This document shows positions 55,990 through 60,581 of a stretch of 64,000 nt of DNA, one piece after another. Within the stretch, counting starts at the first letter, position 1; each line of letters opens with the position of its first letter. Position numbers and translations under genes: made by a program. The DNA lies in contig CP061210.1 in the NCBI GenBank assembly GCA_026016225.1, positions 517,882 to 581,881 on the forward strand. The letters run 5' to 3'. The DNA comes from Candidatus Nealsonbacteria bacterium (lineage in GTDB: Bacteria > Patescibacteriota > Minisyncoccia > Minisyncoccales > JANBVM01). The notes below the pieces were generated by a model. It saw only the letters and a list, made by a program, of their open reading frames with translations, did not search any database and had not been told where the DNA came from.

Positions 55990-56485
55990 ATTCCTACAGA
56001 ATTAACTGATTTTTTCATTATTCAAGTAGCCCGACCTTTGCAGCTTCCCCCTCCTTCAATCATTCGGAGAATAGGCTATGCTGAAAAAGCTACCAATGTT
56101 TTTATTATATTTATTATCTAAAACATGTCAAGTAATTAAACCTTTCTTCAAGGAAAGGAATAAAGGAAACCTTATTTAAAGATTTATTTTTTCTCCTTCA
56201 TTCCTTTCCCTACCATCATAAAGATGGCACAGGAAAGGAGAATCTTTATGACTCTAATGTCGCTGTACGACATTTTTATTATATCATATTAAATAGAATA
56301 CGTCAAATAAATTAGAATAGCCGTCATAAGGCTACGAGCCACTCGACTGAGATTATCCGAATCGAGAAACAGTGTTCAGAGGAGAGAGATTCTAATCCCC
56401 TCTCCTTTCGGATCAGGGACAACTTCACACTGTTTCCCCGATCCGCCCTCAATCAGAACGACTCACAGCCTCACGACGACTATCC

Positions 56486-56600
56486 AAACCTCACCTTGAA
56501 TCCACTTCTTTAAGAAATGAACTCAAGAAAGATTAGGTTTGAAAGTCCCACTCTCAAACCTTTTTCCCACACCGCTCGAAACGAGAGGTGTTTTAGAATT
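56486..56600. repeat. 105-bp direct repeat, copy 1 (pairs with 58021..58125)
   Basis: CCTCACCTTGAATCCACTTCT.TAAGAAATGAACTCAAGAAAGATTAGGTTTGAAAGTCCCACTCTCAAACCTTTTTCCCACACC.CTCGAAA.GA.AGGTGTT shared with copy 2 at about 95 percent. Contains hairpin AGGTTTGA / TCAAACCT. Confidence 0.65.
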
Positions 56601-56738
56601 CTTATCTCTGCGTTTTCGCAGAAAAAAACTGACGCCTACGGCTCTTTCCTCACGGATCATTGGCCAAACCTGCTGCCTACCGGTATCTAGATCACCAATC
56701 CCCAGCGTCTAATTAATATTTTTTTGATTTAACTGAAA

Positions 56739-57170
56739 TCACCAAGAAAACCAATCTTCATCTGGATCGTTATAATAGCGATCCATATCTTTTCCAGTGG
56801 GTGGTGCGTGCGCATAGCACGTGCCAAGGTAAACCCAAAAAAAGCTGTCTTTGGTTAACAAAGCACGTGGACAATGAACAAAATCCACTTTGTCATCTCT
56901 TACTCTCTCCATCAAGTTTTCTAGGAGAGAGCATTTGAATTCACCGTAAGGAGTAGCACCATTCCTGGGACACTCGTCACTACAAGAGTGACAGGTCCCG
57001 AAACAGAATCTAGCTACTTTGTAGCCAAGAATTTGCTCACCCCACTTTTTATGAAAAATTTTTCGTGGGGCTATGGGAATCTTCGCCTTCTCCAAATCCT
57101 CTACTGGCGTGCATTTTTGTGGCCACGCCTCGTAGAGTAGAACTTCAACTGACAGAGGGCCTTGAATCAT
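56739..57170 (-). CDS. Cys-rich hypothetical protein (GC-richer)
   Basis: 143 aa. CFGTCHSCSDECPRNG and CSLL...HCP motifs. Confidence 0.35.
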   Translation of the reverse strand: MIQGPLSVEVLLYEAWPQKCTPVEDLEKAKIPIAPRKIFHKKWGEQILGYKVARFCFGTCHSCSDECPRNGATPYGEFKCSLLENLMERVRDDKVDFVHCPRALLTKDSFFWVYLGTCYAHAPPTGKDMDRYYNDPDEDWFSW

Positions 57171-57724
57171 AAATAATCCCCTTCGTAGTTTCCATTATCA
57201 ATAATATTTTCATCACCGATTTTTACTTCGATATTTTTCCCATCATATCGAAGTAACAAATAGTTTTTGTTTTCAACTCTCCTCCCTGTTCGGTGAGCTC
57301 GAAGCTCATCGCCTGGATTTAATACAACCAGGATCTCCGCTGTCTCCCCAAGGGCACCCCCTCCGCTATGCCAAGATGAATCTATGGCAATCACCTGTAC
57401 ATTTCTGTCGGCATTAATTCCTGCCGACCCCCGATAACCTGATTTTATCCTCCAAAGGAGTAAAATCCGATTATCTGCTGTAGGTCGTTCAGCGACGATT
57501 AAAAACTTCCCCGTTAATTCTTTTGTCTCTTTGTCTCTTAATGCAATAACTCCCGCCCTAAGAATTTTTCCCTGGCTACTAATTATGTCCACGTCCCGTT
57601 TCCCGATTGAAACCCATGTAGCTCTCTTATGACCTCCCTCCCCTAATGTCACATGTGGATAGGGATTTTGGTCGACCGGGATCCCAACACAAATTTGGTC
57701 TTCAATAGTTTTAAAACATTTCAT
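57167..57724 (-). CDS. Hypothetical protein (GC-richer)
   Basis: 185 aa, overlaps downstream gene by 4 nt (ATGA). Confidence 0.35.
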   Translation of the reverse strand: MKCFKTIEDQICVGIPVDQNPYPHVTLGEGGHKRATWVSIGKRDVDIISSQGKILRAGVIALRDKETKELTGKFLIVAERPTADNRILLLWRIKSGYRGSAGINADRNVQVIAIDSSWHSGGGALGETAEILVVLNPGDELRAHRTGRRVENKNYLLLRYDGKNIEVKIGDENIIDNGNYEGDYL

Positions 57725-58020
57725 TTTAATCCTCTTTTTTTATTTAATTTTTTTTAAAAATTTAAATATTTTTTGGTAAATGTGGTTCACTCTACCTACT
57801 AAACAGACTAATAAGTAAGGTGAACCTCATTTACCTAAAAAGGATTTTTCGACCAGAAATTCAGATATAACAAACAACCCTAATCTATCTATAGTTACTT
57901 TCCTTTTTATTCTTTTAATGAACACTCGTTTTGCTTGCCGACCCTCGGCAGGCAGGTTTTTTATTCCACCTTTTTCCAAATCGTAAAAGTTTTTACAACT
58001 TGGAAAAAAATAGAAATTCT

Positions 58021-58125
58021 TAACCTCACCTTGAATCCACTTCTAATAAGAAATGAACTCAAGAAAGATTAGGTTTGAAAGTCCCACTCTCAAACCTTTT
58101 TCCCACACCTCTCGAAATGAAAGGT
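58021..58125. repeat. 105-bp direct repeat, copy 2
   Basis: See 56486..56600. The two copies bracket the two-gene cassette 56739..57724. Confidence 0.65.
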
Positions 58126-58170
58126 GTTCTGAAAAAAATAATTTGAATAAGAAAGATTGGAAGAAACTAC

Positions 58171-58614
58171 TTAGTCATCTTCTATTGGACTGCCGTCCTC
58201 CTTTATTCCCACAGCTGCGACAAAATCGCAGCCACAAAAGGAGCAATTTAGCGTCCCCAGAGGACACTCATCACTCTCTTTTAAATGAGGGTGATGGATG
58301 AGTTCAATGTGTTCTGTACCGAGCTCTACGGCTCTAAGAACATCCATTGCCCAACCGGCAGGAACATATAGCTTTTTAAATTCCTGTCTGGTTGGTTCTC
58401 TTTCTTCGTCCTGGATCATTTCTTCAAGATCCAAGCTCCAAGATAATATCCCGTACTCTATATCTTTGGTTAATCCAAAGAAAGAGTACCATATATCCTC
58501 TGGGTTTTTCCCAATAATCTCCGCTAATTCCTGAAGATTTACCCAGCCCCAGCCGCAGGGGCCTTCAAAAATGGCTGGTTTTAATTTTTTTGTTTCAATT
58601 TTATCTTTTTTCAT
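58171..58614 (-). CDS. Hypothetical protein with C-terminal Cys cluster (GC-richer)
   Basis: 147 aa. CPLGTLNCSFCGCDF motif near C-terminus and GPCGWGW near N-terminus. Confidence 0.35.
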   Translation of the reverse strand: MKKDKIETKKLKPAIFEGPCGWGWVNLQELAEIIGKNPEDIWYSFFGLTKDIEYGILSWSLDLEEMIQDEEREPTRQEFKKLYVPAGWAMDVLRAVELGTEHIELIHHPHLKESDECPLGTLNCSFCGCDFVAAVGIKEDGSPIEDD

Positions 58615-60581
58615 TTTTAATATCTCCGCTACCTGCTAGTAGCTGTTTGAGATATTAATTACTACTACACAGCGAACAGGTAGCACACTGAATACCTCTT
58701 TTAGTTTTAGAGATACACAAAGTGCTGCCTATTCGGGTAGTACTTTCCTTTCTTTCCCTTTTTATTTTTTTTCAACGTGCGCCTTAACCCTAAGGGCAAT
58801 TTCGTTCCACCCTTTCTCAGACCGTCAAATAGAATTCTGGCGGGCTGGGAAAGACAGAAACCCATATAAACCCATCTTTCTTTTTTCTTTTTTTACAAAA
58901 AAGAAAAAAATAGAAAAAAATTATAAAAAATTATTTTGGAATTGCATTTGGGACTGTAACTGTTATTTCTTGAACTGAAGAAATTAGTACAGCAACATTA
59001 ATTATCTTCTCAAAAACATTTTCTGGAATTACAATGTTTGCTTTTTCTAAAATTTCCTTTATCATTGCTGCAGTAGTTTTTTTTAAAAGTTCGTCCTTTT
59101 CTTTTTCACTCAATTTTCTTTTATCTACCATTTTTCATCACTCATTTTTTACTCCCATCGGGTTCCGGGTCTCCCCGAGGCAGGTCGTCCGCCTTGAGTC
59201 TTATCTCAAGAGAATCATAGACTCAAACCTGTCTACCAAGATTGATAACCAAGTTTGAGCTTAGATTCTCTCCTTTTCTTATTCAATTTTAGTTATCAAC
59301 GTACTCCCTACTTCACTCTTATAATAATGAAATTTCCCGGCACAACTGGATGGGTTAATTCTGTTATGCCGGCCGATCTCATTACTATGGAAACCGGTCG
59401 GTAAGTTGCCTTTCAAGGAGATTTATCCAAGAGACTGCTACTAGTCCTACTCTCTCCCATGCCCTGTACCGAATGGTGCGGGGTCCTTCACAACAAATAG
59501 ATTTTTCTGCGGTTGGGAGAAAATCTCTTACCCCCAGATTGTCAATGTCCCCCATTAACACGTTTATTTATTGTAAAAAAGGATGTAGGAACAATCTCTT
59601 AGAACTTAATCAGCATCCCTACTCAGCGGCAGAAACGGTTCTTTCTACGTTTCCGCACTAACCTACCAGCTCTCAAACCTGTCGAGTGATACAGACTCGA
59701 GAGATTTGAAAGAACATTTTTAAACAAAGAACTATTGTTTTTTTTACCCCTTAGTGAACTCTGTTCTACTTCGGGGCTCTCTCCTTTTACCCTCCATAGC
59801 TTTAGCGACGGAGGGTCTTTTTCTCCTCTATTCAGAGAGAGGGATGAAGGAAAGTTATTTTTTGAGAAAAAACTGTACGGGCCTAAATTTTTAATTGCTT
59901 TTTAAAGCTTTATAGTGAATGCCCCGTTTTCTCTTTTTAAGAAATCTTTAATCCCCCAGATAAGGGAATATTTCACCGCGTATCCAGTAGGAGATTTCTC
60001 TCTGTAAGTATTCCTTTTTTTAGGACTCTCTCCCCCATCCCTCTCCCTCCCGCCTCCGCTAAAGCTTCGGCGAGGCACAGTCCTCCTTTTCTGACAATTG
60101 CCAGATTAGAGGTATGTTTGGAGAAGACTTTCAAGTTTTTGTTTCAATGAACTATGTTTTCCAAACTAACAGGCGGCTCTCAAAGAGAGAGCCGCCTGAT
60201 ATTAATCGCTAAATCTAGTGACTAATTATTATTCATAATTACGAACTAAAAAATGTAATTATGACTCTCTCCCTTTGCCCTCCATAGTATTCCACGACGG
60301 AGGGTCTTTTTTTTAATTTTTTAAAGAAAATCTCTTTATCTTATTACACCTGTATTATATCATATATATAAATTTTGTCAAGGCCATTTCTGAATTTTCG
60401 TTCTCCTTTCTTTTCCCTCATTCTCAAACAATTGTACTATATCATAGTATCTCAAATCTGTCAAGCCCTTTCATCAGGTTACCACAGCAGGTTGCATCCT
60501 TCCCTACTATTTACTATTTTTTAAAAGAAAAAAAGTGAGCAAGGTCGAACCTTGCTCACTTTAGAAAGATAGTAGAAAATT

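Follow-up and report, generated by a model that had tools for sequence, protein, structure and literature searches.

We analyzed a 64,000-nucleotide (nt) stretch of a Candidatus Nealsonbacteria contig (CP061210.1, positions 517,882 to 581,881; termed the window) and in it the 4,592 nt that separate rpsP from khpA. We propose that this interval is an array of accessory cassettes occupying a hot spot that is conserved in Nealsonbacteria and related Parcubacteria and lies between the terminator of rpsP and the promoter of khpA, a reading to which we give slightly better than even credence. Between strains that are otherwise 99.5% identical, cassettes of this array have been gained, lost, and reordered. 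Accessory cassette hot spots as such are a known kind of system, of which the rpsP-khpA array would be a new variant; we found no description of the locus in the literature.

Cassette turnover between sister strains

The window is 99% identical to CP179892.1 (L001; L numbers designate the loci compared) over the region compared, and a second complete sister genome, CP179891.1 (L104), was found through a homolog of ORF147, one of the four open reading frames (ORFs) of the interval (ORF66, ORF147, ORF185, and ORF143, the last two overlapping by ATGA). Positions 64000 to 59329 of the window are shared with L104 at 99.5% identity and positions 56592 to 54440 at 97.8%, and the part in between (59328 to 56593) is replaced. 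Read along the minus strand, which carries the genes, this middle part consists in the window of ORF66, an h4-like spacer, a leader with ORF147, the repeat R1, the hairpins h4 and h5, a leader with ORF185-ORF143, and the repeat R2; in L104, it consists of ORF108, ORF234, the repeat Ra, h4, a leader with ORF144 (81% to ORF147), and the repeat Rb. R1 and R2 are 96% identical direct repeats, 1,536 nt apart, and the ORF185-ORF143 unit that they bracket is missing from L104. Copies of R follow ORF147 and ORF143 in the window and ORF234 and ORF144 in L104. They are part of a shared inter-cassette spacer of ∼230 nt, composed of R, h4, h5, and a purine-rich junction motif, AAAGGAAAGTA, which precedes the leaders of both ORF147 and ORF185. 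Hairpin 2 of R occurs as two alleles (AGGUUUGAGAG.. and GGUUGAGAGAG..) spread across copies and strains, which points to conversion or recombination.

Short-read assemblies break at related positions. A contig with an identical rpsP from sample DRR463594 (L112) ends at the window equivalent of 59395, where identity to L104 starts decaying, and another from DRR463595 (L113), also with an identical rpsP, ends at ∼59831, beside the second copy of a motif that we call M (see below). Two 1.4-kb contigs (L002 and L003) hold the ORF185-ORF143 cassette alone. The breaks at cassette boundaries suggest coexisting variants, strain heterogeneity, or repeats in samples DRR463594 and DRR463595.

The rpsP-khpA junction in relatives

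A TrmD-anchored scan of GTDB species representatives returned 80 loci, 58 of them with both rpsP and khpA. All 58 keep the order nusB-rnc-rpsP-khpA-trmD, and the gap between rpsP and khpA ranges from 27 nt to 5,380 nt; none of these gaps contains a homolog of any of the window's four ORFs. Even "empty" sites, of which the 202-nt gap of the complete genome CP179889.1 (L034) is an example, have a terminator, and khpA has a conserved promoter and leader of its own there. In the window, the native ends of the island amount to ∼50 nt on the rpsP side and ∼140 nt on the khpA side. The initial annotation of the window had read the segment as one horizontally acquired insertion splitting an operon. 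Its accessory, acquired nature holds, since relatives lack these genes, which are not core content of the lineage, and the composition is foreign; the single insertion has to be abandoned, since throughout the lineage the junction is a hot spot, its gap varying from 27 nt to 5.4 kb, and empty sites have a terminator and a separate khpA promoter. The absence of rimM between khpA and trmD, noted at the same time, was found again in most relatives with both genes, where khpA and trmD lie less than 300 nt apart, and is therefore a trait of the lineage and not a consequence of the insert.

The expanded gaps of relatives encode small proteins without assigned function, including Cys-rich and zinc-ribbon-like ORFs and an M12-like peptidase (L013), and several lineages have a gap with a higher GC content than the locus. 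No gap ORF listed among the relatives exceeds 282 amino acids (aa), and ten that we sampled include no mobility gene and no phage hallmark.

The gaps of relatives held some further elements. By eye, HicA/HicB-like toxin-antitoxin pairs were recognized inside the gap of L068 (8536 to 9065) and, in L091 (1438 to 2028), immediately after a gene pair of the ORF185 family. A long-hairpin module of ∼100 nt (..CAUAGCGGCGAAGUGGUUACAAUU...AAUUGUAGCCAGCUCGCCGCUAUG..), preceded by AAUAGUUCUUUGAAAAACC, is 88 to 93% identical between the gaps of different species (L011, 8583 to 8683; L025, 3085 to 3204; L019, ∼8860 to 8970; and twice in L023, ∼6620 to 6760 and ∼8205 to 8260). The motif TTCTTT[AG]AAAA is ∼10-fold more frequent on the gene strand of gaps than in flanks.

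Base composition and coding content of the interval

The GC content of the insert is 0.387, against 0.330 for the window. Its noncoding parts range from 0.31 to 0.39, against 0.301 in the other intergenic DNA of the window. Relative to the host genes (n = 64; GC, 0.333 ± 0.036; GC at third codon positions [GC3], 0.260 ± 0.040), ORF143, ORF185, and ORF147 have z scores of 2.5 to 3.1 for GC and 2.3 to 3.7 for GC3 and are compositionally foreign (Table 1). ORF-free sequence makes up 2,961 nt (64%) of the insert, and its ORF-free stretches of 1,967 and 749 nt are the two longest of the window. The initial annotation was accurate in placing rpsP and khpA-trmD 4.6 kb apart, in the higher GC of the segment between them, and in finding more than 2.5 kb without credible ORFs; its "three Cys-rich genes" reduce to ORF143 (8 Cys) and ORF147 (5 Cys), ORF185 having 2 Cys. 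Conserved flanks with variable occupancy and a composition deviating from that of the host, both typical of genomic islands, are found together here.

Structured noncoding sequence and signs of selection

We expressed folding stability as the z score of a native segment against dinucleotide shuffles and scanned the window in 200-nt sliding windows. All noncoding segments of the insert fold much more stably than their shuffles (z, -6.3 to -12.6; Table 1), which bears out strongly the many stable hairpins reported at the outset, and no other part of the 64 kb comes close to the region from 55.6 to 60.8 kb in its density of strongly structured 200-nt windows. Expanded gaps of relatives have a mean z of -4.41 (232 windows from 17 loci), compared with -1.15 for the flanking nusB-rnc-rpsP genes (249 windows; Mann-Whitney P = 5e-32), so that hairpin density is a property of the locus and not of this genome alone. 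The structure depends on the strand: the minus transcript of 56738 to 56310 is far more stable than the plus transcript (-177 versus -112 kcal/mol). Four of the 12 sigma-70 consensus promoters of the window (at least 11/12 matches) fall in the insert, all on the gene strand (60464, 60381, 56306, and 56131).

Differences between the window and L001 cluster in hairpins, ORF185, ORF147, and ORF66 being almost invariant. Hairpin 2 of R2 (56561 to 56535) has four pairs altered on both sides with pairing kept, and all four differing positions in the rod-like hairpin D1 keep pairing on the minus-strand RNA. Compared with L104, the predicted hairpin at ∼58661 to 58620, which would sequester the ribosome binding site (RBS) of ORF147, contains the compensatory pairs 58652/58623 (U-A to C-G) and 58649/58626 (C-G to U-A), and both arms of a hairpin at ∼59392 to 59325, where identity to L104 ends, change concordantly. 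The hairpin arms, in these alignments, co-vary. A function at the RNA level is likely but not proven, because palindromes at the DNA level also co-vary and strand-biased C-to-T mutation may add G-U pairs.

Two observations on hairpins stand apart. The strongest single structured 200-nt window of the 64 kb (z of about -17) lies outside the island, at 36050 to 36420 on the minus strand, and comprises two long, AT-rich, near-perfect intergenic hairpins that resemble a pair of long terminators. In the loop of the rpsP terminator (60546 to 60548), TCG in the window corresponds to its reverse complement CGA in L001, which looks like the inversion of a palindrome.

Head module and khpA leader

The sequence that directly follows rpsP in the window recurs in relatives as a head module, made up of a consensus promoter, a 5′ purine tract (GAGGAGAGAG), an AU-rich stretch (AAUUUUAAUAAUAUGAC), and a terminator, T1 (CAGGCGGCUCUCUC...GAGAGCCGCCUG). 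It is conserved in at least eight relatives with expanded gaps and lies directly after rpsP in L012 (1475 to 1600), L013, L018, L019, L023, and L025. No gap with a head module is shorter than 798 nt; at short-gap loci, the only promoter is that of khpA. Tandem promoter pairs ∼85 nt apart, as in the window, were also found in L037, L068, and L071. The head modules of the window and L037 carry an additional inserted hairpin, motif M, whose first copy in the window reads CCCUCC-N15-GGAGGG-CAAAGGGAGAG. A second copy (59815 to 59777) lies in the structured domain A2. In the variable patch 59489 to 59459 of domain A3, L001 has a copy of motif M instead, and this copy is identical at 38/38 positions to that of L037, whose TrmD is only 65% identical.

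We conjecture that T1 is subject to attenuation, with the purine tract and the 3′ arm of T1 competing for the pyrimidine half of the 5′ arm. In L018, the purine tract and the T1 arm change together. Duplex energies between the purine tract and the 5′ arm of T1 were no better than those of shuffles (z, 0.4 to -2.8), and attenuation is kept as a conjecture for this reason, with the co-variation in L018 as its support.

At the other end, the ∼140 nt adjoining khpA (56131 to 55990) are kept almost throughout the relatives, even where the gap is minimal. The khpA leader has the form AGUAGC-[0-100 nt optional hairpin]-GAAAGGUCGRGCUACU (GUAGC...GAAAGGUCGGGCUACU in the window), and its core AAGGUCG is present in 73 of 75 related loci. 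Its closing stem shows a few covariations (AGUAGU/GACUACU in L045 and L080), and it has no Rfam match. From this pattern, we regard the leader as a candidate for a new cis-regulatory or 5′-stabilizing element of the khpA-trmD operon in Parcubacteria.

Cargo proteins

None of the four window ORFs has a match in Pfam, PHROGs, or PADLOC. The ORF185 family comprises 42 clusters at 35 to 59% identity, with many invariant residues and the signature PYP..GxGGxK..T..SGYRG..D..W.SG.G..TAE; in some members, a CxxC...CxxC zinc ribbon is inserted after residue ∼50. The AlphaFold model of ORF185 is confident and all-beta (predicted local distance difference test [pLDDT], 89; predicted template modeling score, 0.86) and has no analogue in the PDB. 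Its sole significant structural match, in BFVD, is an uncharacterized protein of Sulfolobus rod-shaped virus 11 (SIRV11; E = 1.7e-5; template modeling score, 0.5). In a metagenome-assembled genome of Anaerolineae (L004-6), an ORF185 homolog adjoins the integrase of a temperate phage or prophage with TerL, TerS, and portal genes, and another is located close to one end of a 59-kb phage contig that encodes TerL (L007). Other homologs stand beside TrmB-regulator, DEAD-helicase, and MoxR/VWA clusters, and still others are isolated genes in further CPR-like contigs (CPR, candidate phyla radiation).

In the window, L004, and L091, the ORF185-family gene is followed by a translationally coupled ORF of ∼140 to 175 aa. 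The window representative, ORF143, has no detectable homology to those of L004 or L091 and is nearly an ORFan, its matches being the sister strain and one relative at 59%. ORF147 belongs to an uncharacterized family of seven members, and its model, of moderate confidence (pLDDT, 73), has no structural analogue. Beyond the window, PADLOC-DB gave no match for six gap ORFs of relatives, and Pfam, PHROGs, and PADLOC together returned nothing for the insert and the sampled gap ORFs except the M12-like peptidase of L013 and weak helix-turn-helix (HTH) hints.

Features along the interval

Table 1 lists the features of the interval. The host, a CPR bacterium, has a complete genome of ∼0.66 Mb, and its gene order on the minus strand is here rnc, rpsP, khpA, trmD, tRNA-Tyr, tRNA-Thr, rpmG, and tRNA-Trp. 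In domain A2, a long-range helix of ∼40 bp (60066 to 60028 with 59854 to 59798) encloses sub-hairpins. The spacer and leader upstream of ORF147 contain an h4-like AT hairpin (58916 to 58870), the junction motif (58761 to 58741), and a 35-bp hairpin; those upstream of ORF185 contain h4 (58016 to 57965; 24 bp), h5 (57956 to 57930), the junction motif (57916 to 57896), and a 30-bp leader hairpin (∼57845 to 57770). The unit that starts at promoter P3 is conserved in L024 and L017.

TABLE 1 Features of the rpsP-khpA interval and its flanking genes (window coordinates, in the order of the minus strand)
Feature	Position	Strand	Folding z	GC	GC3	Remarks
rnc	61032..61718	-				
rpsP	60582..61022	-				Ribosomal_S16
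rpsP intrinsic terminator	60532..60562	-				Native; loop inverted in sister strain L001
Tandem head promoters	60354..60464	-				P1, 60464-60436 (11/12); P2, 60381-60354 (12/12, TG-extended)
Head RNA	60165..60347	-	-6.3			Motif M copy 1 (60304-60267); terminator T1 (60198-60170)
Structured domain A2	59750..60160	-	-7.2			
Structured domain A3	59132..59749	-	-9.7			
ORF66	58931..59131	-		0.274	0.149	AT-rich; weak RBS; doubtful gene; absent from L104
Spacer and ORF147 leader	58615..58930	-	-6.5			
ORF147	58171..58614	-		0.421	0.392	
R1, cassette-terminal repeat (107 nt)	58022..58128	-				Three hairpins, hairpin 2 terminator-like
Spacer and ORF185 leader	57725..58021	-	-12.6			
ORF185	57167..57724	-		0.423	0.355	Member of the all-beta (predicted) family
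ORF143	56739..57170	-		0.444	0.410	Start overlaps ORF185 stop
R2, second copy of the 107-nt repeat	56487..56592	-				
D1, rod-like hairpin (∼180 nt)	56310..56486	-	-10.95			70 bp, including 16 G-U
Promoter P3 and structured RNA (∼130 nt)	56141..56306	-				P3, 56306-56278 (11/12); terminator, 56158-56141
khpA promoter P4 and khpA leader	55990..56131	-				Native; P4, 56131-56104 (12/12); leader, 56093-56025
khpA	55675..55989	-				KH_KhpA-B
trmD	54850..55563	-				

Domain A2 also contains a 58-aa ORF (60078 to 59902, minus strand) with a GTG start, a strong Shine-Dalgarno sequence (AAAAGGAGG), and no family match; it is present in the sister strains, where the region is 99.5% identical, so that its conservation is uninformative. 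Between rpmG and tRNA-Trp, 1.5 kb from the island, the sister strains carry an extra ∼750 nt (L001, 13290 to 14036; L104, 12727 to 13395) that is absent at window positions 54421 to 54440. This second strain-level indel encodes a 222-aa ORF with a weak HTH hint.

Search for known elements

At gathering thresholds, Rfam found only tRNAs in the window and no match in the gaps of eight relatives; at E ≤ 10, nothing credible appeared in 55500 to 61100, where the best match was L20_leader on the rpsP terminator (30.7 bits, gathering threshold 58.7). ARAGORN found no transfer-messenger RNA (tmRNA), and the Rfam 15 families for RNase P, tmRNA, signal recognition particle (SRP) RNA, 6S RNA, group I/II introns, GOLLD/ROOL/OLE/HEARO, and riboswitches stayed below gathering in the insert. 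The early suggestion of structured noncoding RNAs (ncRNAs) therefore stands in that the island is packed with structured, probably transcribed, RNA-like elements, and falls for RNase P, tmRNA, SRP, 6S, and the introns. As a conserved 5′-untranslated stem in a translation-related operon, the khpA leader is like ribosomal protein and operon leaders such as those of L19/L20; unlike them, it matches no Rfam family. Motif M was not found in IMG/VR, and an 18-mer of R gave one chance match.

We rejected a diversity-generating retroelement, since the largest ORF has 185 aa and no reverse transcriptase domain, the differences between R1 and R2 are G>T, C>T, and G>A and thus not adenine-specific, and both copies are intergenic. 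Integration at dif or the terminus, as by integrative mobile elements exploiting Xer (IMEX), was also rejected; cumulative GC skew is monotonic, with all genes on one strand.

Proposed organization and alternative explanations

We propose the following organization. The 5′ part of the array would be a head with tandem consensus promoters, a short structured RNA (purine tract and motif M), and T1, and would be followed by ∼1 kb of ORF-free, hairpin-dense sequence. Each cassette unit would consist of a structured leader, one or more ORFs, R, the AT-rich hairpin h4, and the purine-rich junction, and the 3′ part would run from the rod hairpin through another small transcription unit to the promoter and leader native to khpA. 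Cassettes are most likely exchanged by recombination within the shared spacer (R, h4, and junction) and at hairpins, most simply through gene conversion or homologous recombination once DNA has been taken up or delivered by phage. Transcription would start at the head promoters and in part read through T1; the hairpins would act on the RNA as terminators, as processing or stability elements, or by sequestering RBSs; and the cargo may provide phage-related accessory functions in exclusion, defense, or host interaction. Like the genomic-island and phage-moron hot spots of Enterobacteria and P2/P4-like phages, the island has core flanks and variable cargo of foreign composition, which also occurs in phages and would be exchanged by recombination at conserved boundary sequences. 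Unlike them, it is tiny (0 to 5.4 kb), mostly structured and noncoding, free of known defense or mobility genes, and located in a CPR genome of ∼0.66 Mb, a kind of genome with little accessory DNA.

Several points weigh against this proposal. The 64-kb window contains no recombinase, transposase, or other mobility gene, and with no ORF above 282 aa the gaps of relatives hold nothing of the size of an integrase or transposase, so that the mechanism of exchange is deduced from endpoints only. The cassette boundaries rest on three sister genomes, R was found in those three strains alone in a search of 1.3 Mb of related loci, and ∼1.25 kb of ORF-free sequence (60160 to 59330) common to all three is left unaccounted for by the cassette model. 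Transcription of the island is inferred from consensus promoters and terminators, and strand-biased C-to-T mutation, not selection, could partly lie behind the G-U-rich hairpins. Finally, the ORF185 family is absent from IMG/VR, INPHARED, and PLSDB, and its link to phages therefore rests on two metagenomic lineages.

The hairpins could belong instead to a native array of ncRNA genes (small RNAs or one large RNA), possibly tied to KhpA or RNase III, with the ORFs as passengers. This would fit the extreme folding z scores and dense promoters, the compensatory changes in several hairpins, the hairpin density at the locus in 17 genomes, and the flanking of the locus by rnc and khpA, as well as the head RNA and motif M, which are kept in distant relatives (M, 38/38 between L001 and L037). 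We nevertheless consider it unlikely. Only the head module, the P3 unit, and the khpA leader are conserved beyond the sister strains, Rfam matches are lacking, the ORFs have good RBSs and are nearly invariant between strains, ORF185 represents a well-conserved protein family, and many relatives have gaps of 27 to 300 nt without such RNAs, which are thus dispensable. More improbable still, in our view, is an integron-like array in which R would be attC-like, cassettes would move as circles under a tyrosine recombinase encoded elsewhere, and the head promoter would act as Pc. The island does share with sedentary chromosomal integron arrays and clusters of attC sites lacking integron-integrases (CALINs) a fixed locus with a strong promoter at the head, tandem promoter-proximal cassettes of small, mostly function-unassigned ORFs, a foldable repeat of ∼100 nt after each, strain-level variation in content, and ORF-less stretches. 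Tandem ORF-plus-repeat cassettes with presence/absence variation were indeed found, including the 1,536-bp unit between direct R copies that is absent in a sister strain, and folding is strand specific with G-T/G-U pairs. R itself starts with ..CAGAACACC or ..CTAAAACACC and ends with GAGGTT/AAGAAT or GAGGTT/TGGATA (slash, boundary). We rejected its identity as attC, because it has no 7/7 match to RYYYAAC or GTTRRRY at its ends, and because single-stranded R1 and R2, on both strands, fold into three consecutive independent hairpins with the ends unpaired together, not into one bulged stem. Also unlike CALINs, the inter-ORF spacers are several-fold longer (300 to 750 nt of extra, multi-hairpin structure, against compact integron cassettes), and the R copies are near-identical and restricted to three strains. 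No IntI, which a CALIN does not require, is present: tblastn of the 64-kb window for tyrosine recombinases gave a best E of 0.37, and Pfam Phage_integrase had no match within 10 kb of the island in L001 or L104.

That the interval is what remains of a prophage or integrative element inserted downstream of rpsP, its integrase and structural genes since lost, appears very unlikely to us. The raised GC and GC3, the presence of direct repeats, and the ORF185-family genes of a temperate phage, where they adjoin an integrase, and of another phage contig would agree with such an origin. Searches with Pfam, PHROGs, and tblastn, however, revealed no pseudogene traces of integrase, terminase, or capsid (the initial annotation, too, had seen no integrase), the insert is unmatched in reference phages and IMG/VR, and the direct repeats bracket an internal 1.5-kb unit instead of the whole insert. 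The gaps that reach up to 5.4 kb in relatives contain, as said, no longer ORFs and, in the ten sampled, no phage hallmark. Nor is the island a decayed mobile element, as had been considered initially: its ORFs are intact and nearly invariant between sisters, and its content changes cassette by cassette. We give hardly any credence to a pile-up of selfish palindromic repeats (miniature inverted-repeat transposable elements [MITE], repetitive extragenic palindromes [REP], Correia-, or enterobacterial repetitive intergenic consensus [ERIC]-like) in a permissive intergenic region, even with long near-perfect hairpins such as the 70-bp rod, a terminator loop inverted between strains, and hairpin alleles exchanged between copies. 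Correia/NEMIS elements of Neisseria and ERIC/intergenic repeat unit (IRU) elements are transcribed palindromic repeats processed by RNase III, and the hairpins of the island are like them in being long, imperfect, probably cotranscribed with neighbors, near terminators, and accompanied by promoter-like sequences. They differ in having no shared termini and in being placed at cassette boundaries instead of dispersed. We rejected MITE or REP identity because the hairpin modules do not recur in the 59 kb of the window outside the interval, which gave only promoter-like and AT-rich chance matches, and R does not recur elsewhere in the 1.3 Mb of related loci. Target-site duplications and shared terminal inverted repeats were not seen, and the G-U-rich stems are far weaker on the plus strand.

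The cassette array could, in a bolder form that we regard as rather unlikely, be a lineage-wide cassette-exchange system of a kind not described before, integron-like in function but not in mechanism. The head would control read-through, the multi-hairpin elements would delimit cassettes and signal recombination or processing to a host- or phage-encoded enzyme, and the cargo, with the new all-beta ORF185 family among it, would mediate interactions with phages or host cells in these ultra-small episymbionts.

Significance for CPR bacteria

CPR bacteria have very small genomes and little recognizable accessory DNA. The island locates strain-level variation in such a genome, with cassette turnover between strains that are 99.5% identical elsewhere, and two thirds of its length consist of stable RNA-type hairpins with consensus promoters. 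It offers several handles for experiments, namely, a predicted new and well-conserved protein fold shared with phages (the ORF185 family), a conserved, putative small RNA downstream of rpsP, and the khpA leader. In population studies of CPR bacteria, strains might be tracked with the hot spot as a marker. Should the hairpins signal recombination, they would represent a mechanism of cassette capture that is new; should they work on the RNA alone, the locus would hold an unusually dense set of regulatory or stability elements beside the genes for RNase III and KhpA.

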